From NCBI GenBank assembly GCA_910584815.1, contig CAJUBT010000008.1, positions 1 to 57,762 of the forward strand: a stretch of 57,762 nucleotides of DNA. Reading direction: 5' to 3'. Below are positions 10,301-57,762 of the stretch, piece after piece. Positions within the stretch are counted from its first letter, which is position 1. The number at the start of each line of letters is the position of its first letter. The translations under genes were made by a program, and so were the position numbers. Origin of the DNA: an uncultured Christensenella sp. Lineage in GTDB: Bacteria > Bacillota > Clostridia > Christensenellales > UBA1242. The notes under the pieces were generated by a model that saw nothing but the letters and a program-made list of their open reading frames with translations, was not told where the DNA came from and ran no database searches.

Positions 10301-13300
10301 AGCATAACCAAAAATGGCGAAACAGCTTCATTATTAAATGTTGGCATTTACGAATATTCTTTTATATCTAATAACCAAAACATTATTTTAAATTCTGGCG
10401 ATATAACTGGAACAATAGAAATTACTTCAAAATTAGTTTATTTACAAAATGTTGTTGATAGTTATAGTTATACTGGTGAAGAATTAATTTTTAATTATAC
10501 ACTAAGTGAAAATATTGCTGTTAATGTTGAAATAGATACTTTAATTAACGCTGGTAGTTATAACTATATTGTAACAGCTTGCGATAGTAATTATGAAATA
10601 GTTAATGGAACAGGCTCTGTAGTTGTAACTCCAAAATCTATACAAGTTTTAAATATCTCAACCAACTATACATATACAGGTAACAATGTTGAAGTAACTT
10701 TTGATTTGGAAGAAGATATTGAAACTTATGTTACTTTTAAAAATGCTAACAATCAAAATGAAGAGCTTTTAAATAACATTGTTAATGCTGGCAATTATAA
10801 CATATTTATAACTCCTATTAACCAAAACTATGTGGTAGATTCTTCAAACATTATAATTACTATCAATGCAAAGCAAGTTGAAATTAATGTAACAAACACC
10901 ACTCAAACCTACAATAAAACAAATAAACAGATATCAGTAGAAGTAGAAAATAATGTGCCTTATGTTGTAACCTACTATAATGAAAAGGGTGAAGAAGTTA
11001 AAAACACAACCAATGCTGGCACTTATAACTTTGTTGTAAGTTTAACTAATTCAAACTATATTGCTAACTGCACAGGCACTTTGGTTGTAGAAAAATTAAA
11101 TGCATATTTAACAGTTGTTGCCGACCAATATAAAGTTTATGGTGATGTAAATGAAGAAAATTATGCTTATGCTTTAAACGGCGTTGTGGAAGGCGACGTT
11201 ATAGATGTTGTGTTAACTCGTAACGCAGGCGAAGCTGTTGGTTATTATCAAATTAATTTACAAAGTTATAATAACCCAAACTATAACCTAATTTATAGCC
11301 CAGTTAATTTTAAAATAATTGCAAAAAAACTTATTATTGTTGCAAATAATGTTACAAAAACTTACGAAAGTTTAGATGAAGAATTAACTTATAAAATAAC
11401 TTTTGGTGAACTTGTTAATAACGATGTATTATTAGGTAACCTTGAAAGAGAAGAGGGCGAAGATGTTGGCGTTTATAACATTAACATTGGAACCTTACAA
11501 ACACTAAACCCTAACTATCAAATTATTTTCAAAAAAGCAAATTTCACAATTATCCCTAGCGACCTTAAAATTAAAATAAATAATATAGAAACTACTTATG
11601 GAACCGAAGTTGCACTATCTTTCAGTGCAGAAAGAAGTTTTAACGAAACTATGGTAACTGGCGAAATTGCAAGGGAAGAAGGTTTTGATGCTGGCACCTA
11701 TTTAATTACAAAAGGTACTTTGCAAAGTAAAAATTATAATTTAATTATAACTAATGGAACTTATACAATAAATCCAAAGTCTGCTTTTGTAACTGCACAA
11801 AATTTAACAAAAACTTATGGTGAAGAAGATAACTTAAATTACACAGTAATAGGGCTTTTAAATAATGATGTTCTAAAAGGAGCATTAGGCAGAGAAACTG
11901 GCGAAGATGCTGGAACTTATTTAATAAATTTAGGAACTCTTCAAACTTTAAATCCTAATTATTTATTTAATTTGCAAGAAGCATATTATACCATAAATAA
12001 AGCCATTTTAACAGTTAATATTGCTAACCAAACTCAAGTTTATGGCGAAGAAGAAAAAGAACTTACTTATACAATTAATGGTTTAAAATTTAACGATGAA
12101 ATTAATTTTAAATTATTTAGAGAAAGTGGTTTAGATGTTGGAGAATATCAAATTGCTTGTGGCATTCCACAACTTAACAACTATTATGTTCTATTAAACA
12201 GCGGAAAATATACAATAACAAAAGCCAAAATAAGCCCTGTTTTAGTTGCTGAAACTTCAACATATAACGGCAAAGCACAAAATTTCACCAACACCAATTT
12301 CCCATACGAACTTGAATATACCTATAAATTAAATGGTATACAAGTTGACAGTGTTATAAATGCTGGAACTTATTTAGTTCAAGGATATTTTGCAGGTAAT
12401 AATAACTATGAACCAGCAAAAAGTAACGCAGTAACTTTTACAATTAACAAAGTTTCAGTTTGTTTTAATTTAGGTAATAATAACTTTGTTTACGATGGCG
12501 AAGTAAAATCTCCATATTTTTCTTTCGATTCTTCACTTGGGTTATCTTCAAATGCAATAACTTTTGAATTTGAAAATAATGCAATACCAAGAGAAGTTGG
12601 TTCTTATCCTTTCACTATTTTAGTAAATGATGATAACTACACAGGTTTTGCTAGCGGTGTTTTAAACATAACAAAACCTGTAACTATTGTAGGTGATGAT
12701 TCAATTATAGAATGTGAAGATGCAGTTTTTGATAGCACCATTTCAAACCTAAAACTTGTTAGTCACGTTTTTAATGGAAAATTTAATAATCAACAAGTTT
12801 TACAGGCTTGCACATTTGAAAACACTTCAGGTATAGATGAAAGCCACATCTTTACAGTAAGAATGCGTGCCAAAACAAGTGATAGCAATGTTTATGTTTA
12901 TAAAATAGATAAAAATAATGTTGCAAGCGAAGTTGTTGTTTCTGTTCAAGATGGGTATTATGTATTTAAGGTAGATGGGTTAGATTGTCAATACATAATA
13001 ACAAAAGATATTGAACCAATGTCCCTTATAACAATTGCTGTAATTATTGCTGTTTCAATTATAGTTTTAGTTGCAATAGTAATAGCCTTTAAAGTTAGGA
13101 AAAACCGCAAAAAGAAATTAGCACTAAAAATGGCAAATAACAATGCTACAATTAGCCTAGAAACAGTTACAACTGAAAACAATAACTTAAACGATAAAAA
13201 TAAAAAGAACAAAAAAGTGCGAGTAGATAATGTTATTTCAAGTGCGTTAAATAATGGAACTGTTAACACTAATGTTGAAAGCATTTTAGATGCTAATAAA

Positions 13301-13369
13301 AAAACAAGTGAAACCTGTTTAGATGAAAAAAATAAAAACGATGATTTAAACAATAATAACATTAAATAA
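7343..13369 (+). CDS. Giant surface protein with tandem Ig-like and MBG (YG..) repeats, C-terminal TM anchor and K/N-rich tail
   Basis: 2008-aa ORF with an N-terminal signal peptide. Has repeats of the type KTYGEED..L.Y...GL.N.D.L.G.L.RE.GEDAGTY.I..G.L....NY, a C-terminal hydrophobic helix (LITIAVIIAVSIIVLVAIVIAF) and then a basic tail. Confidence 0.8.
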   Translation: MKNFKTFICIAICLVASFAVLLLSPFTINAFAGVEDAGKSYAQNTQTRFLTINNNKTVLFDDHIENLYTISSCNNSTSGGNSGDISYDKNNKSIKFTTSSNAIDKKNPRIETAFKLNGKYKRAVEKGLITVTLKVKVENKNASTEIGFQEGTINTNGGDGFSGWNSKNGSYATVKDLGSLQKEGDNYVLSFVPTTTDILLVFANNKSGGGINTNELTITNPTIELTRNASPTINISDLLVNGKVSDSSWTAQAKTLTFNVSDNNFGIDYVTINGEKVECDENSINNDTLKTYSYLVNSIAETNYTITAYDYLGGTTSVSKKVGFVDSQDVSDVTINAENSYHEKNITIDISFEEDTTHSHDSVYYTLIDNSTGEDPTPNPNDTTGKTKEVPHQNGRYTFNFSFEFDGEYTLTILICDEAGHQKTFSKTFTIDSVKRRVNVTSHNGTYNITGVYSDEQGYYTWNGESITLTYNANENFNFYKLLRNGSEMQTNGSVYNYTCKDADINIEIFNRFVVDLNAVESYEFSEDGTNLIYSLNSNYLVNVLSREELSNILQENLDGLTEEEILQKVDSLINSNLILTIKTNGFVADSIYNVGSYFVSYKIDTPNFTGSNSFNILVTPKILQVEFLENNFTYNGKVQNVNFVQIPNQTVNVKYYSVLEDGSVSSTETSLLNAGTYKAVLTLNNANYTLSNGEIILTINKKQVEVKVENTTFKYNANNQNIIYSLTEDIDCVVNYFNNDGNLVNNFKNAGEYSYSVLPLDEVNYEFINNSGKCTILKITANIQVNKIVYDYTGNALTLIYSVTDENGEEVIVNNLTITYFVNGEVANFIEPNNYSFSFDTIDRDNYILGGTLTGTATIKKTKIFVFVSNTEYEYTGSEIKLNYYFLNEENEKLDALNNISLEFIKNGQVTNFIDCGEYEYNFVTSDVNYEIIFNNKTSLTIVPAVLNVQVLNNTYTYNSLGNLLNYVILSNNNVNFTDNENIILSITKNGETASLLNVGIYEYSFISNNQNIILNSGDITGTIEITSKLVYLQNVVDSYSYTGEELIFNYTLSENIAVNVEIDTLINAGSYNYIVTACDSNYEIVNGTGSVVVTPKSIQVLNISTNYTYTGNNVEVTFDLEEDIETYVTFKNANNQNEELLNNIVNAGNYNIFITPINQNYVVDSSNIIITINAKQVEINVTNTTQTYNKTNKQISVEVENNVPYVVTYYNEKGEEVKNTTNAGTYNFVVSLTNSNYIANCTGTLVVEKLNAYLTVVADQYKVYGDVNEENYAYALNGVVEGDVIDVVLTRNAGEAVGYYQINLQSYNNPNYNLIYSPVNFKIIAKKLIIVANNVTKTYESLDEELTYKITFGELVNNDVLLGNLEREEGEDVGVYNINIGTLQTLNPNYQIIFKKANFTIIPSDLKIKINNIETTYGTEVALSFSAERSFNETMVTGEIAREEGFDAGTYLITKGTLQSKNYNLIITNGTYTINPKSAFVTAQNLTKTYGEEDNLNYTVIGLLNNDVLKGALGRETGEDAGTYLINLGTLQTLNPNYLFNLQEAYYTINKAILTVNIANQTQVYGEEEKELTYTINGLKFNDEINFKLFRESGLDVGEYQIACGIPQLNNYYVLLNSGKYTITKAKISPVLVAETSTYNGKAQNFTNTNFPYELEYTYKLNGIQVDSVINAGTYLVQGYFAGNNNYEPAKSNAVTFTINKVSVCFNLGNNNFVYDGEVKSPYFSFDSSLGLSSNAITFEFENNAIPREVGSYPFTILVNDDNYTGFASGVLNITKPVTIVGDDSIIECEDAVFDSTISNLKLVSHVFNGKFNNQQVLQACTFENTSGIDESHIFTVRMRAKTSDSNVYVYKIDKNNVASEVVVSVQDGYYVFKVDGLDCQYIITKDIEPMSLITIAVIIAVSIIVLVAIVIAFKVRKNRKKKLALKMANNNATISLETVTTENNNLNDKNKKNKKVRVDNVISSALNNGTVNTNVESILDANKKTSETCLDEKNKNDDLNNNNIK

Positions 13370-13406: not shown

Positions 13407-13438
13407 ATTAACTTAAATTGTTATTTTAGTTATAAATT

Positions 13439-14692
13439 TTATTCTGTTTTTGTTCTTGCAATAGTTGTGTTATCTTTCTTACGGTTTTGAAGTTGTTTTA
13501 TAGGGTGAGGTTTATCTTGATAGCGATAATCTTCTCCTCCTAGTTCCTTTAAACAATAATCCATTACTAAATGGCTTGGCACAGATTTTGGGTCATCGCA
13601 AGTAATTGCTTGTTGGTAGCAAAAGTATCTGTCTTTATCGGTTAATTTATTAACATCTTTGTAGTTGTCATCTTTAGCAGTTAAGGTTATAGAGTTTTCA
13701 ATAACATCTCTTATATAATCTTTGTGGCTGCCAATTTTAAGTAGCATAGGAAATTCTCCATCGCCAAAAACCTCGGTATAGTCTTTCTTTTCATATTTTT
13801 TAAGCAACCTAACAGCTTCTTTTAAATGGGCGCATTCCATTTCAAAATGGTCGTACCAGATGTCTTTTAATTCAAGGTTATCTTCATCTTCATAGGCACT
13901 ATAATATAGGTATGCTTCGGCATATTCGTGCATAACCCATTGTTCTAACCAAGTCATATTAGGGTCTTTTAAACTTTCATATTGTGTTACGTGGGCTTCT
14001 TCAATCATTGCAATTTCGCTATAAAGTTTTCTGCCAACATCATTTTTATACCATTGTGCAATGTTCATATAGTAATTCATTGTTTGTTGTTCTGCAGCTG
14101 TTATGGTACAGCCAACAAGTTTACTATAAAGGCTTGCTTTTTTTGCATTCATATGTGGCTTTAAGTCATCGGCAGGGTGGCGGTGTTCTGCTATTGTTGG
14201 TCTGCCTGGCATAATTTCTGTAAAGCCTCCAACAAGTTTTTTTGCATCAATTTTTTTGTCAACCATTAGCAAGTTGGCAAATCTATATAAATGGTCAAAA
14301 TCTTCAAGTAAAGCAAAGTCTAATGCTTTCTTGTTAACAGGGTCCTCTTCATATATAGCAAGAGATGCCGTTAAATCTACAGCAAGTTGTTCATAACCAA
14401 TGGTTGTTTCTAAAATGCTTTCATTTATCGGTTTTAAACAGGCAATGTGTTTTTGCTGCCATTGCTCTTGTCGTCTTATAATAGCCAAACTTTCAAGTAT
14501 TTCTTTTTCATTGCAGTGTCTGGCAAATTGGTGCATAAACCAAACAGATTCATATTCCGTGCCATTCATCAAAATCACTCTTGTTTTAGAATATGGTCCT
14601 GTTTTGTTTTTATTGTAAGCTTTAGGGTACATATCTTTTAAACTTTTAAAATAAGCGCTTAATTCTTTTGTTTCATAGGTTATTGGGTTCAT
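13439..14692 (-). CDS. Ferritin-like (putative di-iron carboxylate) domain protein, function unknown
   Basis: 417-aa ORF with GGAGG RBS. Several E..H motifs spaced as in helical di-iron proteins (IEEAHVTQYE, EMECAHLKEA, LEDFDHLYRF). Family assignment is from memory only. Confidence 0.4.
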   Translation of the reverse strand: MNPITYETKELSAYFKSLKDMYPKAYNKNKTGPYSKTRVILMNGTEYESVWFMHQFARHCNEKEILESLAIIRRQEQWQQKHIACLKPINESILETTIGYEQLAVDLTASLAIYEEDPVNKKALDFALLEDFDHLYRFANLLMVDKKIDAKKLVGGFTEIMPGRPTIAEHRHPADDLKPHMNAKKASLYSKLVGCTITAAEQQTMNYYMNIAQWYKNDVGRKLYSEIAMIEEAHVTQYESLKDPNMTWLEQWVMHEYAEAYLYYSAYEDEDNLELKDIWYDHFEMECAHLKEAVRLLKKYEKKDYTEVFGDGEFPMLLKIGSHKDYIRDVIENSITLTAKDDNYKDVNKLTDKDRYFCYQQAITCDDPKSVPSHLVMDYCLKELGGEDYRYQDKPHPIKQLQNRKKDNTTIARTKTE

Positions 14693-30625: not shown

Positions 30626-31720
30626 TTATTTATCTAAAACGGCATCAATTTCTGTTGTGCCAGCAGGCTGTAGGTTAGGGGCAACGCTTGCTTGTGCTGG
30701 GCTTGTAGCTTCTACAGCTTGACTTTCTGTTCCACCTTGAAAATTATCAAAGAAGATTTGTGCTTCTTCTTGTGAAACTAAACCTTGTTCAACTTTGTAT
30801 TGCATAAAACGAAGTTTAAGTTCATCTATATGTGTTTGCATTTCTTCGTTGTTAGCAGGGCTTGCTTCTGCTTCAGCAATTCGTTCATCAAGAGTTTTTG
30901 CAACTTTAAGGGCTTCTTCTGCTCTTGTTCTTTCAACAGCATCTTGTGCGGAAACAAAACCAAAATAGTTATCTTCGTGAGAAACATTTTCACAATCGCT
31001 AAGTGCATCAAGAGTGTCATCTGCAGATTGAGGATTAATTTTAGAGTAAACTAAGGTTGGTCTGTCAACTTGTTTGCTACGTTTAAAAATTTCAATAAAA
31101 TCGTATTTGCCAGAACTTTCAATATAGCCAACGGTTTTTGGCAAACCTTCAATAGCTGTATCGTGGTCTTGCTGTCTAACATATCTGCAGAAACCTAAAC
31201 TTTCAATTTGACCTTCGCACCTTTCAATTTGAGACATTTTACTTTCAAGATAAGGCACTGCAAAAGCCCTAACGCCAACGGTGTAGCCAGCTTCTTTAAA
31301 TTTTGTCATAGCATCATCAGCAATTCTGTTATTCTTTAAAGTTTGGTGAAGAATAATGTTGTATTTATTATCTTTAAAATAATTAATAACATCAGATGTA
31401 ATTTCTAAGCCAATTTGGTCTGTTGCTGCGGTGTAAAGGTCTGGGTATAGGGCTTTAATTTCATCTGCTTGTGGGTGAAAGCCTCTAAAAAAATCATTAT
31501 CAATTTGAATAAACTCTCTTCTAGTGGACATTCCAAAAGTATAGTTTATAAGTGCTGTTTTGCCAGCTCCAGATTGCCCACCAACAACAACTGCAAGTGG
31601 TTTTCTAGATGGAACTATATCTTTAGCTATTGCTCTTATAATTGTTTCCTTTATGCCTTGAAGTTGTTCTTCAGGAAGGCGATACATTTTCATAACTTCT
31701 TTTTCTGTAATGTTAGCCAT
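30626..31720 (-). CDS. Zeta-toxin family kinase (PezT-like) with ~110-aa C-terminal extension
   Basis: 364 aa with Walker A VVGGQSGAGKT. The start overlaps the upstream small ORF by 8 nt (ATGGCTAA). Visibly more G+C than its neighbours. Confidence 0.8.
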   Translation of the reverse strand: MANITEKEVMKMYRLPEEQLQGIKETIIRAIAKDIVPSRKPLAVVVGGQSGAGKTALINYTFGMSTRREFIQIDNDFFRGFHPQADEIKALYPDLYTAATDQIGLEITSDVINYFKDNKYNIILHQTLKNNRIADDAMTKFKEAGYTVGVRAFAVPYLESKMSQIERCEGQIESLGFCRYVRQQDHDTAIEGLPKTVGYIESSGKYDFIEIFKRSKQVDRPTLVYSKINPQSADDTLDALSDCENVSHEDNYFGFVSAQDAVERTRAEEALKVAKTLDERIAEAEASPANNEEMQTHIDELKLRFMQYKVEQGLVSQEEAQIFFDNFQGGTESQAVEATSPAQASVAPNLQPAGTTEIDAVLDK

Positions 31721-44943: not shown

Positions 44944-45288
44944 ATGAGGCTAAAGGAAATTAGAAAGCAAAAAGGTTTAAAACAAAATAAAGTAGCTCAA
45001 GATTTACAAATTAATGTTGTAACCTATAATGGCTATGAAACTGGGAAAAGCGAACCTAACATTCAAATTATATTAAAACTAGCAGATTATTTTAATGTTA
45101 CAACAGATGAACTTTTAGGGGCTCAAAGCAAACTTCCAACCCTTAGCGAAAAAAGTGCCTTACTTGGAAGAGTAAACCAGTTAACTGAAAACGAATGCCA
45201 CAAATTAAACATTTATGCTGAAGCACTTATGTTTGCAAGAGTTGAACATAAAGACAAAATAAATAAAATTATTAGAGATGAAGAATAA
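44944..45288 (+). CDS. XRE-HTH protein, DGR-adjacent paralog 1
   Basis: 114 aa with AAGGAGAG RBS. N-terminal HTH_3-like region and conserved C-terminal LTENECHKLNIYAEAL. Confidence 0.8.
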   Translation: MRLKEIRKQKGLKQNKVAQDLQINVVTYNGYETGKSEPNIQIILKLADYFNVTTDELLGAQSKLPTLSEKSALLGRVNQLTENECHKLNIYAEALMFARVEHKDKINKIIRDEE

Positions 45289-45608
45289 TGAAACTAAAAG
45301 AAATAAGAAAAAAACTTAAAATAAATCAAGATGAACTTGCAAAGGTTTTAAACACAACGCAGCATACAATTTCTAATTACGAAAACAATAAAACTCAACC
45401 AAGCATAGAAGACATTGTAACTTTAGCAAAGTTTTTAAATGTAACAGCAGATGAGTTGCTTGGAATGAATGTAAATAACGAAAATTTAATTGAAAGAAAC
45501 TTGCTATTCAAAACAATTAATGGCTTAACCGAAAGTGAATGCCATAAGTTAAATATATATGCAGAGGCATTAATAACTGAAAGAGAAATATATAAAGATA
45601 AAATTTAA
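45288..45608 (+). CDS. XRE-HTH protein, DGR-adjacent paralog 2
   Basis: 106 aa. The start overlaps the previous stop (TAATG). Same two-part architecture (LTESECHKLNIYAEAL). Confidence 0.8.
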   Translation: MKLKEIRKKLKINQDELAKVLNTTQHTISNYENNKTQPSIEDIVTLAKFLNVTADELLGMNVNNENLIERNLLFKTINGLTESECHKLNIYAEALITEREIYKDKI

Positions 45609-45630
45609 AAGAAACTAAAGAAGAGATAAA

Positions 45631-45993
45631 ATGAATTTAAAAGAAATACGAAAAAGAAATAAAAAGAATCAGAAAGAAGTTGCAGATTTTTTAAATGTTA
45701 TGCAATCTACCTATAGCGGATATGAAGTTGGTAGGGTGGAAATGACGGGGGAAACAATTATAAAATTATCTAACTATTTTAACGTTACAACCGATGAACT
45801 TTTAGGGGTAAAGAGAGAAGAAAAAACATTAACTCAAAAAAATACCCTTATGAATAAAATTAACAATTTAACAGAAAATGAATGTTATAAATTAAATGTC
45901 TATGCAGATGCTTTAATTATAAACAGAGAAGAACATAAGCAAAAAATTAACAAACTATTAACGGAAGAAAATGAAAAATTAACAAATTTTTAA
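45631..45993 (+). CDS. XRE-HTH protein, DGR-adjacent paralog 3
   Basis: 120 aa with the same architecture (LTENECYKLNVYADAL). Confidence 0.8.
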   Translation: MNLKEIRKRNKKNQKEVADFLNVMQSTYSGYEVGRVEMTGETIIKLSNYFNVTTDELLGVKREEKTLTQKNTLMNKINNLTENECYKLNVYADALIINREEHKQKINKLLTEENEKLTNF

Positions 45994-47522: not shown

Positions 47523-47921
47523 ATGGATGAAAATAGGGTTGCAAGAACATTAATATCTCACGATAAAAGCAAAGATATGGCTGTGTTCACCCACGCCAAA
47601 AAATTAAGCGAATATATTTTTGTTATAACCGAAAAATCTCCTAAAAAATTAAGATGGAGTATTATAACAAGAATGCAAAACATATCGGTTGAAATTATAG
47701 AAAACCTATACCGTGCAAACTTAGAAAGGGGAGAACTTAGGGTAGAATATCAAAAGCGTGCCTATGTTAATGTGCAATTGCTAGACTATTATGCCTCTAC
47801 CGCAAAAACAATGCAAGCAATAAACAATCACCAAATGTTAGTGCTTGGCAAGAGCTTGCTAGATGTTAAAAAATTGTTACTAGGTTGGGTTAAAGCAACT
47901 AAAAATAACCTTTCAACCTAG
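47523..47921 (+). CDS. avd: Avd-like accessory variability determinant (four-helix-bundle, 23S rRNA IVS protein family)
   Basis: 132 aa with AAGGAGA RBS, basic and helical. The pattern F.HAKKLSEYIFVITEK.PKK.R.SI..RMQN.S.EI.EN..RAN is typical of Avd. Lies adjacent to the RT. Confidence 0.8.
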   Translation: MDENRVARTLISHDKSKDMAVFTHAKKLSEYIFVITEKSPKKLRWSIITRMQNISVEIIENLYRANLERGELRVEYQKRAYVNVQLLDYYASTAKTMQAINNHQMLVLGKSLLDVKKLLLGWVKATKNNLST

Positions 47922-48168
47922 TTGAGAACTTAATATATAATATATTATATATAATAACTATATAATAATATATCCTATTTATATAAACCTATTTATATAA
48001 ACCTGTTAGTAATTAAGTTTGTTGGTTTATTGTTAAACTTATTTTAAAATAAATTTTTAAATAAGTTTGCTGAGTTTTGTTGTAAAAATTTTATATATAT
48101 GTTTGCTTGTTTTTTTTTTAAGATAGTTAAATTAACTTATTGCTTTTTTTTTAAAAAATTTTAAATAT

Positions 48169-48201
48169 TGTGCTATAAACTTAAATAGCACAAATTTTTT
48201 A
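48169..48201 (+). terminator. Terminator after avd
   Basis: 9-bp stem TTGTGCTAT/ATAGCACAA with 8-nt loop, then ATTTTTT. Confidence 0.55.
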
Positions 48202-48251
48202 TGTGCCAAAAAAACAAAACAAACCTACAAAACAATGTTTTGTTAAAATTA

Positions 48252-48475
48252 CCTTAAAGCCTCACCGCACCGCCGAAACTTAAAAAAACAAAATTTTATT
48301 TTTTTAGGCTTTTTGCTTGCTAATGCCTCAAAACAAAATTTAAAATTTTTGCGTTGTGACAAGATGAGGCCACATTCACCCTCGCCATATTCTGTTGGCA
48401 ATTAGGTAGGATAGAAACCCCTTCACCACAAATCAATATCGGCTTAACTGTTATAAATAGTTAAGAACAGGAATT
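48252..48475 (-). ncRNA. Structured RNA island 1 (3' of TR-1 in the TR sense)
   Basis: GC-enriched block in an AT-rich spacer. Conserved core AGGTAGGATAGAAACCCCTTCACCACAAATCAATATCGGCTTAAC. Helices GCCTCA(48259)/TGAGGC(48365) and CTTAACT(48443)/AGTTAAG(48459). Confidence 0.5.
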
Positions 48476-48783
48476 TAACACTTTTAACATTGTTGTTGGT
48501 TTATAAAAAAAGTTTGCTCCTATATTTTATAGTTTTAAAACCATATGTAAAGTTTTTAAATCTGTAAACTTTTTTTGCCTTTTATAAACTTAAAACCATA
48601 AAAACTTAAAATATATTTTATTTAAAAATTTAAAAGTTTGTTTTTATAAACATACTTTTTTTAAAATATTCAAATTTTAAAATTTTTATAATGCTTTTAA
48701 ATTTAAAACTTTTAAAGACTTGTTAAAAAATAAAAAGCAAATTAGGAACCATATTTTTTTAAACCTTAACAAATAAAAAGGCG

Positions 48784-48904
48784 GTGAAGCGCGGGACGAA
48801 CGGCGTTAGAATTGTGAACGTTGTTATTACTCCAATCAGCGCCAGAAGGGTTGAGTATATACGCATTGTTAGCATTATTGTTGTTGCCAGACCGCAACCA
48901 CGAA
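48784..48904 (-). repeat. DGR template repeat TR-1 (intact, no cognate VR in window)
   Basis: 121 nt with the same 18-nt and 22-nt end blocks as the VR. 12 in-frame AAY codons and no stop. Differs from TR-2 at 17 internal positions. Confidence 0.75.
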
Positions 48905-49338
48905 AGAAAGAGAAAAAGGCCCCGACCTAATTACAAGGTTTTTACCCCTTAATATAAAACTATCATAAAACTTTAAATTATGTAAAACATAATAGTTTTA
49001 TTTTTTTTGATTATAAAATAAATTTTTAAAATTTGTTTTGAATTGTTCAGCTTTTTTAGTTTTTTATTGTTTTTTTAAAAAAATGCTTTTACAAAAAAAC
49101 TAATTAAAAACAAATGCAAAACAATTTAAAAAACTTAGCCTTAGCATTATATAAAACTTTTTTTAAATTTTTTTATTTATAAAAAACACAAAATTTAAAA
49201 TAAAAAAAGGTTTAATTAACAATTTAAAGCATTTTTTAAATGCACATAAAAGGTTTAGCAAAAAAAAATTAAAAGCCTTTAACCTTTATGCTTTTTTATT
49301 TTTAAATTTGCTTAAAGTTTTAAAAAAACTGAATAAAA

Positions 49339-49565
49339 AAAGCCCTACCGCACCACCACCTTAGTTACTAAAAAAAATTATTAATTTTTTTAGTAAGGGC
49401 TTTTGCTCACACCCCAAAACAAAATTAACTTTTGTGTTGGAGTAAGGTAAGGCAATATTCACCCACGCCACATTTATTTTTTGTTGGCAAGCAGGTAGGA
49501 CAAAAATCCCTTCACCACAAATCAACTTCGGCTTAACTGGTGTTAATAGTTAAGAACAGGAAAAA
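49339..49565 (-). ncRNA. Structured RNA island 2 (3' of TR-2 in the TR sense)
   Basis: Same core as island 1. Helix GCCCTACC(49342)/GGTAAGGC(49446) is C:A on the + strand but U:G on the - strand. Hairpins at 49414-49440 and 49532-49554. On the - strand the last helix is followed by U7. Confidence 0.55.
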
Positions 49566-49743
49566 CCCTTTTAATGCACCATTTAAAAATAAACTAGGTT
49601 TTTTTTAGGCTTTAAAACTTAAAAGTTTTGTTAAGTTTTTAACCGCTAGCACAAGCACTTAAACTTGTTTAAAAATTTTTGCAATAAAAAACTTAAAACA
49701 AAAAAAGTTAGTTGCCATAAAATAAACCTACACATTAAAAGGT

Positions 49744-49864
49744 GGTGAAGCGCGGGACGAACGGCGTTAGTATTGTTGACATTATTATTACCGTTACTAG
49801 CGCCAGAAGAATTGAGATTGTAAGCATTGTTAGCATTATTGTTGTTGCCAGACCGCAACCACGA
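49744..49864 (-). repeat. DGR template repeat TR-2 (cognate of VR 53016-53136)
   Basis: Its reverse complement aligns gap-free with the VR. 18 mismatches, 17 of them at TR adenines. 15 in-frame AAY codons. Confidence 0.9.
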
Positions 49865-50283
49865 AAGAAAGAGAAAAAAGACTCCAGCCCAAAATACAGA
49901 TTTCTGCCCCTTATTAAAACTTTATCACAAAACTTTAACCTTTAGCAAATGTTAAACCTTAAGTTTTAACTGTTTAATAAAAGCTTTTAAAAATAATCTT
50001 CGTTTAAATTTGCAAAAGTTTGGTTTTTTATACCTTAGCTTTTAAATTAAAAAACTGTGTTCAAAAAATGTAATTTAAAAAAGGGTTTAAGGTTTTAAAA
50101 AAACAAACCCCAACTTAAAACAAATAAAAACTATTTTTTTAAAACAACAACATAAGTTTGTAATTTTTTTAAAAACAACTTTTAAATTGTAAATTTTGGT
50201 TAAAACATTTTTTAAAAAATATAATAAAAAGTGTTTTTTATAACTTAAAAATTTTTTGGCATTTTTTAAGCTTTAAATAAAAA

Positions 50284-50552
50284 AAAGCCCTACCACAAAA
50301 AAGGCTTTAAAAAAAAATTTTAAGATTTTTTTGTAAATAACTTAAAACAAAAAAATAATTTTGCGTTAAGTTAAGGTAGGGCAACCTTCACCCTTCTTTT
50401 AATTTAAAAATTGTTTTTTAAAAAACCTTTTTTTTAAATTTTGCTTTTTATTAAAACAAACCAAATTAAAAGTGGCGGGTAGGATAAAAACCCCTTCACC
50501 ACAAAATCTAATCGGCTTAACAAACATTTTTTATGTTTTGTTAAGAGCAGGA
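50284..50552 (-). ncRNA. Structured RNA island 3 (divergent, with ~90-nt AT-rich insertion)
   Basis: Perfect helix GCCCTACC(50287)/GGTAGGGC(50375), extended 12-bp CTTAAC.../...GTTAAG hairpin (50516-50545), and conserved GGTAGGATAAAAACCCCTTCACCAC. Confidence 0.45.
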
Positions 50553-50831
50553 AAATAACTGCCTTTTAAAATTTTACTAAATTGTGGCTTGCGGCAAATT
50601 TTTTAAACTTGCTTTGTTTTTTAATTAATAAAATTAAAAATTAATTGTTTTAAATTCCATTTTAAAACTGGAGTTTTGTGGCAACTAACTTTTTTTGTTA
50701 AGCCCTTTTAATTGCTTTAAAATGCAAATTTGTTAAGGCTAAAACCTTAGTTAAAACAACACAACTTGTCAACTAAATTTTTTTTAAAAAAAACAAGCCT
50801 GTAAAAAAAGCAAACCTAAACTTTAAAAGGT

Positions 50832-50950
50832 GGTGAAGCGCGGGACGAACGGCGCTAAACGCACTGCAGCAAAACACCCTAAGAAAGTGCGCCAGAAGAA
50901 AAACAAAAAGCGTGGCGGGAAGCCTACTAGCAGCCAGACCGCAACCACGA
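50832..50950 (-). repeat. Degenerate TR/VR-like copy 3 (adenine-poor, indels, in-frame stops)
   Basis: 119 nt. Both end blocks are identical to TR-1, TR-2 and the VR. The central 79 nt have only 7 sense-strand adenines, several TAG codons and a length difference of -2. Confidence 0.7.
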
Positions 50951-51938
50951 AAGAGAAAAGGAGAGAAAAAAGCCCGAAACTTAATTTATGATTTTTACCC
51001 TTAACTTTAACTTACCACACCTTAAAAACCTTAAACAATTTAAAGGCAATAAAATGTTTAAGATATTTACAACTTAAATAAATTTAAACTTTTTTATTAA
51101 AAACTCAACTGTTTTAATTTTTTTAAAAAACAAATTTAAATGCTATTTTTAAAAAATAATTTTAAACCAAATTTTAAAAACAAAAAATTTTAACTTTAAT
51201 TTGCTTTAAAAACAAAAATTAAATTTTAATGCTAAAAAATAAAAGTTAAACTTAAACAAAGTTCCTTTAAGCAATTCTAGATATTTTTTAATTAAATGCT
51301 AAAAATTAAAATCTCCTATTTTTTGCTTTTTAATTTAATAAGTTATAAAGTTTATAAACCTATTTTTAATGCTTTTATAACAATTTAAAAATTTGCCTTT
51401 GTTTTGTTTAAAAACTAAATTTTGTTAAAGGTGCAAAAAACTTTTTTTGCAAACTTAGGCTATAATTTATTATTTTAAAATATTTATAAAATAAATAAAA
51501 TAAGCCCAAAAAGGCAAAAAATGTTGGTAAATATTAAAAAAACTATCTATTTTTGTTGTAATTTTGCTTTAATTTATTTATAATTAACAATGTAAAATAT
51601 CCAAAATTTGCCAATTTTAAACTTTGTTGCTTATAAAGGGTTTTTTTAAATTTTAAAACAATTAAAATTAAAACTTTTAATTTAAAAATTTAATTTTATT
51701 TTAAAAAGCAATTTAAAAGTTTTTAAACTTAGTTCTTTTTAAATTAATTTTAAAATTTTTTGTTAAAGTTTAATTCCTTACTTTTAGTTTAGTTTTAATT
51801 GCTTGTTTAAGAAAGTTGCTTTTGCTGCAACAAGTTTAACAGTTTTTAGTTTAGTGCTAACTAACTAAACCCATAAATTTTACAAATTTAATAAATGATA
51901 GGATAAATTTTTTATAAAAAACTAAGGAAGGATTTAAT

Positions 51939-54900
51939 ATGAAAAAGTTATTTTTGAGTATAAGCACTTTTTTTGTTTTTACGCTTTTAACATTAAGCGT
52001 TTTTTTTGTTGACTTTAAACCAGATATGGCTAAAGCCTTTAATTCCGAAAACACTACCACCGCAGTTAAGGTAGATGAAATTTGGAACGACACCGCAAAA
52101 AAATTTGATGATGATAACCTAACAAAACTTTTGCAGTTTGTTACAGGCAGCAACACTGTTAGAACAAACAACCTAAGCACCGTTAAAACACAGGCAACCA
52201 ACAAAAAAACAGCCAGTGCAATTAGGGGCACAGCAGTAACTGCCAGCACCGATGGTGCAGTTAAAACTGCAAGTAAAGATATTATTGTAACATTAGGCGG
52301 GTTAGACTGGACCCCTGTATATTTAAGTAACGATACCTCCTCAAACCCAATTTTAACCTTATGGCTAGCAAACTCTAGCCAACTTAATGGCAAAAAATAC
52401 TACACAAGTAACACAGCATCTTCTTCCTTTGGTTCAAGTGGCTCAGCAATGTGGAATAGTGGTTTTACCCCTTGGACAACAAGTGCAGATGGGAATACTT
52501 ACTATTATAACGATTCTGCAACTCCTGCTTCATCCTATCCAGACAATATGTATGGTATGAGTGCAATAAGAAGCACCGTTTTAAACAATGGAGGTTCTTA
52601 TTCAACTGCACATATGGGTAAAAGCACCGCTACTATGAGTAAAAAGAGCGATAGTGTTTTTAGCAAATTCACAGTAACCACTTCAAATTCCACTGCCATT
52701 GCAGACTATTTAACTGTGCCAACAAATGTTTCTTGGCAAAAAAGTGGGCAAAATTTATCAAAAACTTGGTTTAGTTACCAAGCACCAAGTGAAGATTTGC
52801 AAACTGGCGTAAACACCTCTACTGCAGGTTATTATACAACAACATCTTATGTTTCTAATGGGCAAACTGCAAGTATGAATTATACAAGTAGAAGCAATTA
52901 CACTCAATGGAGTAACGATCGTTTATGGCTTCCTTCAGTTACAGAGACGGGCTACGATGACACACATATAGGCATTTGGAGCACTACAACTGAACAAAGG
53001 TCGAACACGCAGTGGTCGTGGTTGCGGTCTGGCTACTACTATCCTGCTAGCAGTGCTTACCATCTCCTTTCTTCTGGCGCTAGGTACGGTTTTAATATTG
53101 TCAGCAGTACTTACGCCGTTCGTCCCGCGCTTCACCTTAATCTAAACTCGGCTGCGGCGAACACAATTAGTGCTATAGACATTAACACTTGCGTGGTTTC
53201 AAACTTAAGCAATAGTCAATGGAACCCAGTAAGCAACCCAATTCCAACCTTCACACTTAAAACCCCAGATGGTAAAACAACATTAACTAAAGATACCGAC
53301 TATACTGTAACTTCTTCTTCAACCAGTGCACCTGGCACTATAACTTTAACAATCAAGGGGAAGAGCAGTAAATATGAAGGCACAAAAACTGTAACCTATC
53401 AACTTGAAAAAAGAAGCATAACCCGTGCGTTGAGAGACAACACCTTGAGTGTTGCCAACCAAACTTGGACGGGTGAAAACCTCACGCCCGCGTTAAGCGG
53501 GCTGAAAGACTACGCCTATAATGCCGACACTGGTGGCAGCAAACTTAGCACAACAGGCGTAGCCTTAACCCAAAACACACACTACACCCTTAGTTACACA
53601 AACAACAAAAACATAGGCACTGCAACCATAACAATAACTGGGGCAGGCAACTACACTGGTTCAACAAGTGTTAACTTTAACATTGTTGCTGTGGATATGA
53701 GTTTAATTACGGTAGATGCCGTTGAAGATAGAATTTGGAACCCAGTAAGTAACCCAATTCCAGAAATTGTGGCAAGATACACAGGTGCAAACAAAACCTT
53801 AACCACCGCCGACTATACTGTTACAAGCTCTGCAAAAACCGATGGCACTGCTGTGCCTGGCGAGGTTACTTTAACCATAACAGGTAAAGGCAACTACACT
53901 GGCACAAAAACTGTTAAATATATGTTAAACCGCCGAGACATTGGCTTGGCATTAATGGGTAACACCCTTACTGTTGCCAACCAAACTTGGACAGGAGAAC
54001 GAATTGAACCTGTTTTAACAGGCTTAAAAGACTATGGTTACCAAACCTTAACAAGCCAAACTCCGCTAAGCCCAACAGGCGTTCCTTTAACCTACAACAC
54101 TCATTATGTGTTAAACTATACTAATAACATAGACCTTGGCACTGCAACTGTAACAATAACAGGCAATGGGGTTTACTACACTGGCACAACCTCAACTGCC
54201 TTTACCATTGTTGCGCGCAGCATTGCCGATGGCACATTAAGTTTAAACCAAACTAATTTAGACTATAATTTTGGTGAAGATTTACTTCCAAGCCTTGTTG
54301 CAACCTTAGAGGTTAACAACAAAACTTTAACCACAAGAGATTACGACCTTTCTTACTATTCTCCAACAGGCAGTGCTGTTACAAAAATAACCGATGCAGG
54401 CACCTACAAAGTTAGGGCAACAGGCAAAGGCAATTATACAAGTGCAAAGGAAATTAATTTTGTTGTAAGCAAACTTGCATTGCGTGAAGAATTTTTTACA
54501 ATTAGCCCAAGCAGTTACGAATATAAAAATTCTCAAATAATTCCTACCTATACTGCAAGCTACACCTACACTGCTGGCAAAACCTATAATTTTAGACCTA
54601 CCGATTTTTCTGTAACCTATGGTGAAAATGTTAACGCTTCAACAGGCGGAACAGTAACTTTTACAGGTGCAGGCAGTAATTTTGAAGGCACTGTAATTAA
54701 AAAATTTACAATCACAGCAAAAAGCATTAGTGCAGGCGACATTACAAAACCAACAATTCCAAGCCAAACCTACACAGGCAGTGCAATAACTCCAAGTTTT
54801 ACATTAACCGATGCAACTCTTGGGCGTGCCTTAGTTAAGGATGCCGACTACACTGTAACCTTTACAAACAATGTTAATGTTGGCGAAAGCAGTGCTGTTG

Positions 54901-57762
54901 TTAAAGTTACAGGCATAGGCAACTATGCTGGCGAAACTGCATTAAGTTTTGAAATTACTCCAAGAAGCATTACTCTTGTTAATATTGCCGAAATTCCAGA
55001 CCAATCTTTTACAGGGTTAGAAATTACACCTGTGCTTAACATAACCGATAATGGTGCAAGTTTAATTAAAGATACTCACTACACTGTAACCTTTGCAAAC
55101 AACATAACAGTTACAAACAGTTCCATTAAAGCAAGTGCAACTCTTGTTGGGGTTGGTAACTACGAAGGCACAACAGTTGTTTATTTTAACATTATTCCTG
55201 TTAACATTAGTGGGGCAATATTTAGCCTTGGCAGAACTTTAATTACTGGTTTTAACTACGAGGAAGATTTTTTAAGTGAAATTCAAGAAAATGCAACTTT
55301 AAAAATTAACACAACCGTTTTACAAAAAAATGTAGACTATAAAATTAGTGCCTTGAATGCCGACAAATCTGCCGAAATTGGCAACATTGTTAACATTGGC
55401 AAATACATTATTCGTGCAACTGGTTTAGGTAACTTTATTGGCACAAACGAAATTGAATTTGAAGTTACAAAAAGAGATATTTCTCAAGATGACATTGAAA
55501 TTGAATTAGACAGCAAAAACAACGATTTTACATATAATGGTGAAAGCCACGAAGCAACAATTAAAGTTTTTGGTAACTACACAATTAAAGGCGTGCAAAA
55601 ACGCAGCGAACTTGTTGAAAACCGCGATTATACAGTTAGTTACGATGAAAACACAAACGCTTCAACCTCTGCCCGTGTGTTAATAACTGGTATTGGCAAC
55701 TTTACAAGCGTTAAAACTAAAAACTTTACAATTAAAGCAAAAATGCTAGATGGGTTAGACATTGTTTTGGAAAATGATATTCCTAACCAAGATTATACTG
55801 GCACAACTCTTTCTCCAACCTTTGTAATTAAAGATAATACTCTTAACCTAGTTTTAGCACAAGGCACTCATTATAGTGCTACTTATACAAACAACACCAA
55901 TGCTGGAGAGGCAACTATAACGCTTACAGGTATTGGCAACTATGGCGGAACAAAGGTTTTACACTTTAACATTTTACCAAGAGATATTTCTCTTGCAACA
56001 ATTTTAGAAATTCCAGACCAAGTTTACACATCTTCTAACATAGAACCTGTTTTAACAGTAACCGATAATGGCAGAAATTTGGTTAGAGGGGTAGACTATT
56101 TAGCAACCTTTAAAAACAACATAAATGTTGGGCCTGCAGGCAGTGCTCAAATAACCATTAATGGTATTAATAACTATCAAGGCAAAAAGGATGCTGTGTT
56201 CACAATTCTCCCTGCCGACCTTGCCGATGCCAGATTGGAACTTTCTCCTGCAAGCAGTGTTTACACTGGCAAAAGTGCAGTTACTTCCATAAGGGTTATT
56301 ATGAACGAAAACAACGCTGTTGTGGCAGACAAGAACTACCAAATAACCTATTTAAAGGGCAGTCAGGTTTTAAGTGGCATAGAGGACCTTGTTGATGTTG
56401 GAACTTACACAATAAGAATTTCAGGTCAATCTAACTACGAAGGCACCATTCAAGAAAATTTTGTTATCACTCCTTGCAATATGCAAGATGTTTCTGTGTT
56501 GCTTTCAAGTTCAAGTTTTGTGTATAACCAAAGTTCACAAACCCCAGTTGTAACCTTAAGTTACAATGGTTTAACATTAACAAGTGGCACAGACTATATT
56601 TTAACCTATCGCCAAACAAATGAAAGTGGGGCTACAGTTACTCATCCAACAGATGTTGGCACATATGCAATTATTTTAGAAGGTAAAGGTAACTATCAAA
56701 AAACCAATTCAAGTTTAAGTTTTGAAATTACTCCTGCAAGTTTAAACAAAGGTGCAGTTGCAACATTCTCTTCTGACCCAGCAACCGCAAACATAACCTT
56801 TGATAACAGCACTCACAAAATAATTCTTTCTAGCCTTAAAATTAATAATGTAGAATTCTTCAGTGGTTTTGAGGGCGAATATGCAACCGTTTCTTACCTA
56901 AGAGAAAACGAAGAAACCACAAACTTTATCAATGCAGGAACAATAACAATTAAAATTTCTGCAGTAGAAGGTAACAGTAATGTAATTGGCGAAAAAACTT
57001 ATACCTACGAAATTAAGCGTAAAAATTTAGCAACTGCAGACAGCAATAAGCAACTTTTAATTACAGGTATAGAAAACAAAGTTTACAACAGAAATGCACA
57101 CACTCAAAATGTTGTTATCAACGATACCGTTGCAGATTATGCTTTAACAAGTAACGATTTTTCAGTAACCTATTCAACCAGCTGTATTAATGCCGAAGAA
57201 GACATTGTAATTTACATAAATTCAAATGCTTCTGGTAACTATAGCGGAACAATAACAAGAACCTTTAACATTGAAAAAGCAATTGTAAACAATTTTGTTC
57301 TTTTATCTACTGGTGCAGTTTATTCTGCAAGGCCACAAGTTATAGAAGTAGAAGTTAGGGCAGGCAACATTGAACTTACACCTAGTGAATATAAGTTAGA
57401 ATATAAAAGAAACAATATTGTAACAGAAGACATTACTAACATTGGCGATATTTCTGTTGGGCTTATAATTGTAAGCACAAACTTTAAAATTGAAACTCCA
57501 ATTGCAAGTCAGAATTACACAATTTCTAAAATTACAATAGATAGTGTTACTCTTACAAACAATAATGTTGGCTATAATGGTGAAACTTATGTTATAGATA
57601 TTTCTAGCGTTGTTGGTGAAGGCGGAGTTGTTTTAAAAACAACCGATTATATTGTTTCCTACACCGATAAAGATAACAACGCATTAACAAATAACGAAGT
57701 TGTTAAGGCAGGGGTATACACAGTAAAAGTAACAGGTGTAGGCAATGCACAAGGTAGCAAAA
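51939..57762 (+). CDS. DGR target: giant surface protein (partial, >1941 aa) with N-terminal variable ligand-binding domain and tandem Ig-like repeats
   Basis: ATG at 51939 with AAGGAAGG RBS and signal/TM MKKLFLSISTFFVFTLLTLSVFF. The frame is open to the window end, which is why it is missing from the ORF track. The VR encodes SWLRSG...AVRPALHL at aa 360-400. After that come repeats of type ..YTG..I.P......G..L..DTDYTVTY.NN.N.GTATV.ITG.GNY.GT....F.I. Confidence 0.85.
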   Translation, partial: MKKLFLSISTFFVFTLLTLSVFFVDFKPDMAKAFNSENTTTAVKVDEIWNDTAKKFDDDNLTKLLQFVTGSNTVRTNNLSTVKTQATNKKTASAIRGTAVTASTDGAVKTASKDIIVTLGGLDWTPVYLSNDTSSNPILTLWLANSSQLNGKKYYTSNTASSSFGSSGSAMWNSGFTPWTTSADGNTYYYNDSATPASSYPDNMYGMSAIRSTVLNNGGSYSTAHMGKSTATMSKKSDSVFSKFTVTTSNSTAIADYLTVPTNVSWQKSGQNLSKTWFSYQAPSEDLQTGVNTSTAGYYTTTSYVSNGQTASMNYTSRSNYTQWSNDRLWLPSVTETGYDDTHIGIWSTTTEQRSNTQWSWLRSGYYYPASSAYHLLSSGARYGFNIVSSTYAVRPALHLNLNSAAANTISAIDINTCVVSNLSNSQWNPVSNPIPTFTLKTPDGKTTLTKDTDYTVTSSSTSAPGTITLTIKGKSSKYEGTKTVTYQLEKRSITRALRDNTLSVANQTWTGENLTPALSGLKDYAYNADTGGSKLSTTGVALTQNTHYTLSYTNNKNIGTATITITGAGNYTGSTSVNFNIVAVDMSLITVDAVEDRIWNPVSNPIPEIVARYTGANKTLTTADYTVTSSAKTDGTAVPGEVTLTITGKGNYTGTKTVKYMLNRRDIGLALMGNTLTVANQTWTGERIEPVLTGLKDYGYQTLTSQTPLSPTGVPLTYNTHYVLNYTNNIDLGTATVTITGNGVYYTGTTSTAFTIVARSIADGTLSLNQTNLDYNFGEDLLPSLVATLEVNNKTLTTRDYDLSYYSPTGSAVTKITDAGTYKVRATGKGNYTSAKEINFVVSKLALREEFFTISPSSYEYKNSQIIPTYTASYTYTAGKTYNFRPTDFSVTYGENVNASTGGTVTFTGAGSNFEGTVIKKFTITAKSISAGDITKPTIPSQTYTGSAITPSFTLTDATLGRALVKDADYTVTFTNNVNVGESSAVVKVTGIGNYAGETALSFEITPRSITLVNIAEIPDQSFTGLEITPVLNITDNGASLIKDTHYTVTFANNITVTNSSIKASATLVGVGNYEGTTVVYFNIIPVNISGAIFSLGRTLITGFNYEEDFLSEIQENATLKINTTVLQKNVDYKISALNADKSAEIGNIVNIGKYIIRATGLGNFIGTNEIEFEVTKRDISQDDIEIELDSKNNDFTYNGESHEATIKVFGNYTIKGVQKRSELVENRDYTVSYDENTNASTSARVLITGIGNFTSVKTKNFTIKAKMLDGLDIVLENDIPNQDYTGTTLSPTFVIKDNTLNLVLAQGTHYSATYTNNTNAGEATITLTGIGNYGGTKVLHFNILPRDISLATILEIPDQVYTSSNIEPVLTVTDNGRNLVRGVDYLATFKNNINVGPAGSAQITINGINNYQGKKDAVFTILPADLADARLELSPASSVYTGKSAVTSIRVIMNENNAVVADKNYQITYLKGSQVLSGIEDLVDVGTYTIRISGQSNYEGTIQENFVITPCNMQDVSVLLSSSSFVYNQSSQTPVVTLSYNGLTLTSGTDYILTYRQTNESGATVTHPTDVGTYAIILEGKGNYQKTNSSLSFEITPASLNKGAVATFSSDPATANITFDNSTHKIILSSLKINNVEFFSGFEGEYATVSYLRENEETTNFINAGTITIKISAVEGNSNVIGEKTYTYEIKRKNLATADSNKQLLITGIENKVYNRNAHTQNVVINDTVADYALTSNDFSVTYSTSCINAEEDIVIYINSNASGNYSGTITRTFNIEKAIVNNFVLLSTGAVYSARPQVIEVEVRAGNIELTPSEYKLEYKRNNIVTEDITNIGDISVGLIIVSTNFKIETPIASQNYTISKITIDSVTLTNNNVGYNGETYVIDISSVVGEGGVVLKTTDYIVSYTDKDNNALTNNEVVKAGVYTVKVTGVGNAQGSK
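53016..53136 (+). repeat. DGR variable repeat (VR)
   Basis: In frame with the target CDS. Identical to the TRs at 18 nt on the 5' side and 22 nt on the 3' side. Internal differences from TR-2 are almost exclusively at template adenines. Confidence 0.9.
53166..54224 (+). repeat. Internal tandem duplication of a two-domain (~175-180 aa) unit in the target gene
   Basis: Units 53166-53705 and 53706-54224 share DNA-level blocks (e.g. GGAACCCAGTAAG.AACCCAATTCCA; GTTGCCAACCAAACTTGGAC) and colinear protein sequence. Confidence 0.6.

Follow-up and report, generated by a model that had tools for sequence, protein, structure and literature searches.

A diversity-generating retroelement with three template cassettes and one variable repeat in an uncultured Christensenella sp.

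We analyzed a 57,762-nt stretch of DNA from an uncultured Christensenella sp. (GenBank assembly GCA_910584815.1, contig CAJUBT010000008.1, positions 1 to 57,762 of the forward strand), referred to here in its whole length as the window. It carries a diversity-generating retroelement (DGR) consisting of genes for a reverse transcriptase (RT) and the accessory protein Avd, three tandem template cassettes that each contain a template repeat (TR), and the 5' part of a target gene with a single variable repeat (VR) (Table 1). Comparison with other assemblies indicates that this one VR is rewritten from alternative templates, namely from TR-2 in the window and from TR-1 in near-identical sister strains.

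Table 1. Positions of the DGR features in the window and of template arrays in related loci (the latter with locus names)
Feature	Position	Strand	Description
Three tandem XRE-type helix-turn-helix (HTH) paralogues	44944-45993	+	Pfam HTH_3; directly upstream of RT; genomic context
DGR reverse transcriptase, 382 aa	46168-47316	+	Pfam RVT_1, E=2e-20
Avd accessory protein, 132 aa	47523-47921	+	Pfam bAvd, NCBIfam DivGenRetAVD
Cassette 1	48245-48975	-	leader, TR-1, AT-rich spacer, structured 3' RNA domain, U-run
TR-1	48783-48903	-	121 nt, 31 A, 12 AAY codons; donor of L001, L114 and L115 VRs
Cassette 2	49335-49936	-	three-unit alignment, sequence, 3' domain alignment
TR-2	49744-49864	-	121 nt, 34 A, 15 AAY codons; donor of window VR
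Cassette 3	50275-51022	-	motifs kept; larger insertions; region upstream of TR less conserved
TR-3	50832-50950	-	119 nt, 8 A, no AAY codons; implausible donor of window VR
Structured 3' RNA domain, about 170-190 nt	48245-48478, 49338-49567, 50275-50556	-	relatives in alignments A3 and A4
Primer-strand motif GUGGUGAAGGG, cassette 1	48419-48429	-	pairs with TR-1 3' end CUUCACCGC, one G-U pair
Primer-strand motif, cassette 2	49508-49518	-	9/9 base pairs with CUUCACCAC at TR-2 3' end
Primer-strand motif, cassette 3	50492-50502	-	sequence complementarity
Alternative pairing sites	48776-48788 with 48262-48275; 49737-49749 with 49345-49360	-	complementarity
Target gene, 5' part	51939-57761	+	open reading frame of >1,940 aa, runs off the window
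DUF6273 (PF19789) match	52845-53141	+	VR is its C-terminal end
VR	53016-53136	+	aa 360-399 of target protein
TR-like copies in arrays (6 to 12 or more each), avd to target	L038:11660-15772; L022:11636-13536; L030:11646-13040		
Further arrays of 6 to 12 or more copies, avd to target	L046:11632-12780; L018:5625-7422; L019:11677-14050		

Adenine-specific footprint in the window

The VR and the reverse complement of TR-2 align over their entire lengths without gaps. They share identical ends, an 18-nt 5' block TCGTGGTTGCGGTCTGGC and a 22-nt 3' block GCCGTTCGTCCCGCGCTTCACC, and the homology stops abruptly at both flanks. An independent repeat search returned the same pair as the longest inverted repeat of the window. 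Between the two blocks there are 18 mismatches, 17 of which fall on adenines of the TR sense strand (composition A34 T33 C32 G22), and the hypergeometric probability of placing at least 17 of 18 changes on the 34 adenine positions is 1.6e-10. The changed adenines were replaced by T nine times, by C four times and by G four times, while the sole change at another base is T to G at index 68 (window 53084), which converts AGT to AGG. A first-pass annotation, made from the sequence alone, had described the gapless alignment with its identical blocks, the mismatch count and the lone exception at 53084, and we reproduced all of them exactly.

The adenines of TR-2 occupy codon positions 1 and 2 (17 each) and never position 3. 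In the target frame TR-2 translates as SWLRSGNNNNANNAYNLNSSGASNGNNNVNNTNAVRPALH and the VR as SWLRSGYYYPASSAYHLLSSGARYGFNIVSSTYAVRPALH, in agreement with the peptides and the 15 AAY codons listed earlier. The repertoire of 15^15 (about 4e17) variants that was calculated from these codons is arithmetically right for the AAY codons alone, but the full repertoire is larger. The TAC, AGT and ACT codons of TR-2 add a small amount to it, and the TR-1-derived VRs of the sister strains, described below, extend it beyond 15^15 to include positions that are not adenine in TR-2.

An interpretation of this pair as a product of mutagenic homing is well supported, since the A-specific footprint is highly non-random and all parts of a DGR are present. 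By itself the footprint shows past homing only and corresponds to an ordinary, well-formed DGR; it is the surroundings that set this DGR apart. TR-1 differs from the window VR at 33 positions, and 14 of these differences are not at adenines. At each of the 17 positions where TR-1 and TR-2 differ, the window VR is compatible with an origin from TR-2; one of these positions, an adenine in TR-2, is itself mutated in the VR.

Sister strains with VRs written from another template

Comparing the VR across related strains had been proposed as a check of activity; we carried it out, and the result supports recent activity. Additional alleles were recovered from the sister contigs L001 (GCA_948523695.1), L114 (GCA_948752055.1) and L115 (GCA_948542185.1). 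The fourth allele came from the protein cluster of a close relative, P0001; a second protein search around the VR returned only P0001 again. L001 spans the whole RT-to-target locus, most other sister contigs break inside the cassette region, and L002 matches the window as far as its contig reaches, to just past TR-3. Over 17.8 kb, L001 and the window differ at 10 positions outside the VR (99.94% identity) and all three TRs are identical, while about 31 differences are found inside the VR, within 53037-53109. No single-nucleotide polymorphism (SNP) separates the two target genes for 1 kb upstream and 3.3 kb downstream of the VR, which makes import of the allele by recombination unlikely.

Every TR-1-specific non-adenine base is present in the L001 VR, which has 21 mismatches to TR-1, 20 of them at A (P=4.5e-14). 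The VRs of L114 (17/17 mismatches at A, P=1.2e-12) and L115 (16/16, P=8e-12) have the same relation to TR-1. Compared with TR-2, each of the three has 10-12 non-A mismatches, and the window VR shows the reverse pattern. Sites that are polymorphic among the three TR-1-derived VRs are TR-1 adenines in 27 of 28 cases. These almost exclusively A-directed differences point to one VR served by alternative templates. The four alleles, all from one species-level group, are mutually different.

Some further features of these sequences were recorded. Both non-A changes among the four alleles (window 53084 and L001:14457) are T to G in the context AG[T]AA and sit directly 5' of mutated adenines. The end of the L114 contig (CAQADF010000210.1; L114:1934-1976) is Illumina adapter sequence (GATCGGAAGAGCGTCGTGTAGGGAAAGAGTGT...), which has been translated into the C-terminus of the deposited protein P0001 and does not affect the VR. 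A sub-lineage with about 98% identity, represented by three independent assemblies (L005, L006 and L007), has TR-1 and TR-3 only and is missing the TR-2 unit (window 48977-49722).

Three template cassettes

The interval between avd and the target gene (47922-51938, about 4 kb) is occupied by three units of about 1 kb each, arranged in tandem and with the minus strand as their sense strand. No open reading frame (ORF) of at least 90 aa was found in 47922-51856, and a minus-strand ORF at 51857-52393 overlaps the start of the target gene. Cassettes were defined by alignment of the three units (alignment A1), by sequence and by alignment of the 3' domain with relatives. A conserved AAAGTTTT(A/G)TGATA motif precedes TR-1 and TR-2 by about 55-60 nt; in front of TR-3 it is poorly preserved. 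The TRs run on the minus strand, opposite to RT, avd and target on the plus strand, in the window and likewise in locus L058; in most relatives the TRs are on the plus strand.

TR-1, TR-2 and TR-3 are each identical in the window, L001 and L002. TR-3 is a net 2 nt shorter than the other two and has an in-frame TAG TAG and further stops in the target frame. It is nevertheless conserved in L001, L002 and L007.

SNPs inside TRs between strains are few and all fall on template adenines. TR-1 has an A to T change in L004 (window 48852), and TR-3 has two A/G differences in L007 (window 50881 and 50889), which affect two of its eight adenines with a chance probability of about 0.004. These SNPs hint at rare self-mutagenesis of the templates.

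Conserved cassette RNA

Each TR is followed, after about 180-310 nt, by a conserved element containing GUGGUGAAGGG, which is complementary to the TR 3' end CUUCACCAC. In all three cassettes, the strand GUGGUGAAG of the 3' RNA domain can be paired with this TR end. In relatives the TR ends in CUUCAC-UC and GAG(N)UGAAGGG follows 65-85 nt later. RNAalifold applied to 26 relatives independently predicted a long-range helix between the TR 3' end and the primer-strand motif. This helix covaries: most relatives have CACUC/GAG(N)UG, the window and L036 have CACCAC/GUGGUG, and L050 has CACCUAA/UUAGGUG.

In the remainder of the 3' domain, which is about 170 nt long and ends in a closing helix and a U-run, 37 pairs are predicted, and 26 of these show compensatory changes. 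Window cassettes 1 and 2 align to the 3' domain of the relatives, and the minimum free energy (MFE) z-score of 49335-49790 in cassette 2 is -3.97. A scan of 47900-51960 against Rfam 15 gave no match at the gathering score or at E<=1. The cassette 3' RNA is a candidate for a new RNA family, equivalent to the spacer (Sp) region of DGRs.

We also noted an alternative pairing between the TR 3' flank CACC(G/A)CC and a terminal GG(C/U)GGUG just before the closing helix. It covaries as well, the A/G difference between cassettes 1 and 2 being compensated by U/C. This pairing excludes the primer-strand pairing and may represent a resting conformation or a conformational switch; we regard it as a lead and not as a result.

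Template arrays in related loci

A search of genome contigs with the RT returned related loci of which the best is 58% identical to the window RT; the window's own species was not among them. At least 18 of 81 related loci contain three or more TR-like copies outside long ORFs. Array sizes range from 3 to 12 or more copies with periods of 185-420 nt; L022 has 11 copies, and L038 has 12 by a strict pattern and 14-17 by a looser search. In each array locus that also holds a VR, exactly one member has A-only or nearly A-only mismatches to that VR. The position of this member varies: it is the fifth of six in L046, the third of four in L080, the first of three in L081 and the seventh of eleven in L022. 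Adenine-poor members also occur in the arrays of relatives. Scanning with CGTTCGTCCCGCGCTTCACC gave 18 matches in metagenome contigs, all of them chance matches in high-GC sequence with no TR- or VR-like repeat, and one chance match (GC 57%) in viral contigs.

Some array members appear to have been written from others. In L030, the copy at 12722-12839 differs from its neighbour at 12517-12634 at 13 positions, all of them adenines of the latter (P=2.7e-10). A similar pair is found in L022, where 11 of 12 mismatches between 13424-13535 and 12933-13044 are at A. The occurrence of A-mutagenised non-coding copies indicates that TR copies can be recipients of mutagenised cDNA, which also gives the most economical account of TR-3. 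TR-3 is most likely an adenine-depleted, frameshifted cassette which was itself overwritten earlier by mutagenised cDNA and has since drifted. The idea that A-mutagenised copying of TR-1 or TR-2 alone produced TR-3 was rejected after hand alignment of the first half, which gave about 13 changes at A and about 7 at other bases. TR-3 also has a 3-nt deletion and a 1-nt insertion, and its origin cannot be reconstructed.

As a tentative extension, which we consider possible and somewhat doubtful in its entirety, the TRs of this clade could form a self-renewing library. In such a library of 2 to 12 or more tandem cassettes any member could be selected as VR donor, and members would occasionally be overwritten by mutagenised cDNA, making non-A positions evolvable and leaving adenine-poor "spent" copies behind. 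Frameshifted cassettes with stops, such as TR-3, would perhaps serve as reversible OFF templates. The common primer-pairing 3' sequence is perhaps the reason why any array member can be chosen as donor.

Target protein

The target is a surface protein of about 3,450 aa with a membrane anchor; the VR forms the last strands of its membrane-distal DUF6273 tip. The full-length homologue P0097 (3446 aa) has a signal peptide, a DUF6273 tip, a long beta-repeat stalk, a C-terminal transmembrane helix (the only one, near residue 3270) and an N/Q-rich tail. DUF6273 was missed in a Pfam scan of 854 aa at E<=0.01 and found when aa 201-420 were scanned (25.4 bits, cut-off 23.5, E=1.5e-5); the match covers profile positions 70-171 of 172. 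Many target homologues are annotated with PF19789. The VR is not at the C-terminus of the protein but at the C-terminal end of this domain.

An AlphaFold2 model of target residues 30-480 has a pLDDT of 84, with 95-97 across the VR strands. In a Foldseek search of BFVD the model matched DUF6273 proteins of gut phages with a probability of about 1. Foldseek found no significant neighbour in the PDB; the top match there, Thomasclavelia IgA peptidase (E=0.096), and weak C-type-lectin matches (E=4-8) were not used as evidence. The stalk (53283-56119) contains many divergent repeats of about 80 aa with the motif G.GNYTG...F.I, which are not recognised by Pfam at E<=1 and resemble the MBG repeats of a neighbouring giant protein.

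RT, Avd and genomic setting

The best sequence match of the RT in the PDB is bRT of the Bordetella phage (8ub7_A, E=3.4e-35). The RT segment GIPIGNQTSQVF aligns with GIPIGSLTSQLF of bRT, and both the (I/L)GxxxSQ motif and YMDD are present. NCBIfam has no model for DGR RTs, and none of its group II, Drt and retron models reached its cut-off. An identical RT protein is found on 12 contigs from other assemblies, and the exact RT and Avd proteins occur with intact ORFs in many other assemblies. Avd matches Pfam bAvd with 39.6 bits (cut-off 40, E=8e-10) and NCBIfam DivGenRetAVD with 41 bits (cut-off 80, E=1.6e-10), and a PDB sequence search with it gave no match. An Avd homologue directly follows the RT in 78 of 80 related loci.

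These 80 loci are from gut metagenome-assembled genomes (MAGs) labelled Christensenella, Borkfalkiaceae, Clostridia and Anaeroplasmataceae, with RTs 43-58% identical to that of the window. The genes around the DGR are chromosomal and include a glycogen operon and other housekeeping functions. We rejected a prophage origin, as viral RT relatives are at most 39% identical and no phage genes are present in the window. The HTH trio is syntenic in all sister assemblies, while in the 80 related loci there is one weak match (33% identity) located away from the RT; the three paralogues may be local regulators.

Elsewhere in the window, two more giant surface proteins are predicted at 2616-7346 (1576 aa, CarboxypepD_reg repeats) and 7343-13369 (2008 aa, MBG repeats), and no TR-like repeat was found for either. 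A zeta-toxin family gene is located on the minus strand at 30626-31720 (Pfam Zeta_toxin, E=2.5e-30).

Proposed mechanism and alternative explanations

We interpret the locus as a chromosomal DGR with recent activity that combines template choice with adenine mutagenesis in an uncultured gut Bacillota species of low GC content, and we assign this interpretation a probability of roughly 0.85. It is directly supported by the A-specific footprints of TR-2 and TR-1 in the VRs, the confinement of hypervariation to the VR, the identified proteins, and a cassette RNA that is conserved and shows covariation. In the proposed mechanism, RT and Avd, encoded on the plus strand, would work in trans, and their template RNAs would come from three autonomous minus-strand cassettes, each presumably under its own promoter. 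The GUGGUGAAG/CUUCACCAC template:primer duplex would prime cDNA synthesis in cis, with the start probably just 5' of CUUCACC. Adenine-mutagenised cDNA would then replace the VR in the target gene. The most recent donor of the VR was TR-2 in the window genome and TR-1 in the sister strains.

Several observations weigh against this interpretation. A promoter and terminator scan of the AT-rich cassette DNA found no more sites than in shuffled sequence. Both Avd scores are under the curated cut-offs. A hairpin of the type known from phage BPP-1 was not found after the window VR (z=-0.31). The single-sequence MFE fold of cassette 2 pairs the TR 3' flank with the terminal GGUGGUG and not with the primer-strand motif, and either pairing may be the one present in the active state of the cassette RNA. 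Only four VR alleles were recovered, the assemblies are MAG consensus sequences whose VRs may each stand for the most common variant in a mixed population, and activity in this cell line is inferred from differences between assemblies.

One competing explanation is a canonical one-template DGR in which TR-2 is the sole working template and TR-1 and TR-3 are dead tandem duplicates. TR-3 is clearly degenerate, with 8 adenines, a frameshift and stops, and the surveys consulted mostly describe one TR; nevertheless, we consider this explanation highly improbable. The VRs of L001, L114 and L115 have every non-A base that is specific to TR-1 and depart from TR-1 at hardly any position other than adenines, the L001 cassettes are identical to those of the window, and TR-1 retains its 12 AAY codons and a complete cassette, so that for TR-1 the idea is already contradicted. 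It is also conceivable that the DGR wrote the VR long ago and is now non-functional in this genome, as a single genome can show a past event only. Intact RT and Avd ORFs that are identical across many assemblies, conserved cassettes, and completely different VRs in strains 0.06% apart elsewhere make such a fossil unlikely.

Exchange of VR alleles between strains by homologous recombination, or RT-independent gene conversion from a cassette followed by mutation, could make use of the identical 18- and 22-nt flanks shared by cassettes and VR, and only four alleles have been sampled. Given that there are no SNPs near the L001 VR, the ends of an imported tract would need to coincide exactly with those of the VR, and plain gene conversion does not produce A-only differences from a template; we therefore regard this origin as very unlikely. 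Least probable is an assembly artefact, either a VR that is a mixed-read MAG consensus or mis-assembled tandem cassettes. Contigs of many assemblies do break in the cassette region and L114 ends in adapter sequence, but the RT-to-target region was assembled identically in the window and L001, with L002 agreeing as far as it extends. A mixed consensus would blur an A-only pattern rather than make one, and four assemblies gave four clean A-only footprints. The recently active DGR with a choice of templates remains our preferred explanation.

Comparison with known systems

The DGR of Bordetella phage BPP-1 is similar to the window DGR in its RT, bRT being the closest solved relative, in the presence of Avd and in the adenine-specific transfer from TR to VR. 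In both, the TR 3' end is paired with a strand that lies further downstream. The corresponding TR117-129:Sp47-56 duplex of the Bordetella element has been seen by cryo-electron microscopy, with Sp A56 priming cDNA synthesis, and conserved stem-loops after the TR have been reported for many DGRs. The window DGR differs in being cellular and not of a phage, in having three template cassettes instead of one TR, in the orientation of these cassettes opposite to avd and RT, each with its own 3' RNA domain, in a VR that encodes residues 360-399 of about 3,450 and is not C-terminal, and in a target domain which is DUF6273 and not Mtd. In the comparison of the IMH and IMH* sites (initiation of mutagenic homing), the GC-rich 3' blocks of VR and TR agree at all 22 nt, with divergence setting in only beyond CTTCACC. 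The IMH/IMH* arrangement with a hairpin was defined for BPP-1 and is not universal, so its absence limits the similarity to BPP-1 and not the membership among DGRs. The prototypical order, in which the TR adjoins avd and RT on the same strand, is not found in the window; a published survey accepts DGR components on different strands (PMC11661182). Altogether there are five departures from the DGR prototype: template number, template strand, autonomous cassettes with primer domains, VR position and the lack of a BPP-1-type hairpin.

Legionella LdtA and Treponema TvpA are known examples of surface proteins diversified by cellular DGRs. Bacteroides pilus-tip DGRs are another case (10.1101/2024.11.15.621889). 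These systems resemble the window DGR in being chromosomal, in varying an exposed ligand-binding tip and in having a repertoire of similar order (10^17 or more). They have been described with one TR and sometimes several VRs, whereas the window has several TRs and one VR. More than one TR near one RT is also known from DGRs with at least two TRs in surveys, for example in Stenotrophomonas sp. The extra TRs there are part of separate TR-VR sets or belong to cases curated away (PMC6642488, PMC11661182), and two large DGR surveys do not discuss multiple-TR cases. Unlike the TRs described here, they were counted, removed or assigned their own VRs and not treated as alternative donors. A search of open-access papers and bioRxiv yielded no account of TR arrays that serve a single VR, of template switching at the level of strains or of mutagenic copies within an array.

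Silent-cassette antigenic variation, as in Neisseria pilE/pilS and Borrelia vlsE, proceeds by RecA-type gene conversion. There too, one expressed surface locus is rewritten from nearby divergent unexpressed cassettes. The route in the window, however, would go through RNA and an error-prone RT and has an A-specific footprint; it is not a member of this group. Variable DUF6273 proteins are known from gut phages (PMC10743442, PMC11792537), with the VR in the same domain family. In those tail or receptor-binding proteins the VR is close to the C-terminus, whereas in the window DUF6273 forms the N-terminal tip of a giant bacterial protein that is anchored in the membrane.

Implications

Tools that expect one TR per RT or discard overlapping TR hits would mis-annotate an abundant gut clade, and assemblies also break at TR arrays. 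The conserved cassette RNA domain, which is absent from Rfam, could be described as a family. Autonomous cassettes, each with a TR and its own primer domain and acted on in trans, would be a natural example of the multiplexed design sought in DGR engineering.

DGR diversification is usually viewed as confined to the adenines of one invariant template. Several divergent templates for one VR would lift this single-template limit. For instance, at the sites of an AAC and a TCT codon in TR-2, TR-1 has fixed codons for Trp and Pro, and no mutation of the adenines in that AAC can give the Trp that TR-1 supplies. Retroelement hypermutation and cassette-based antigenic variation, usually treated as separate ideas, would be joined in such a system, and homing within the array suggests a route by which the templates themselves may evolve.

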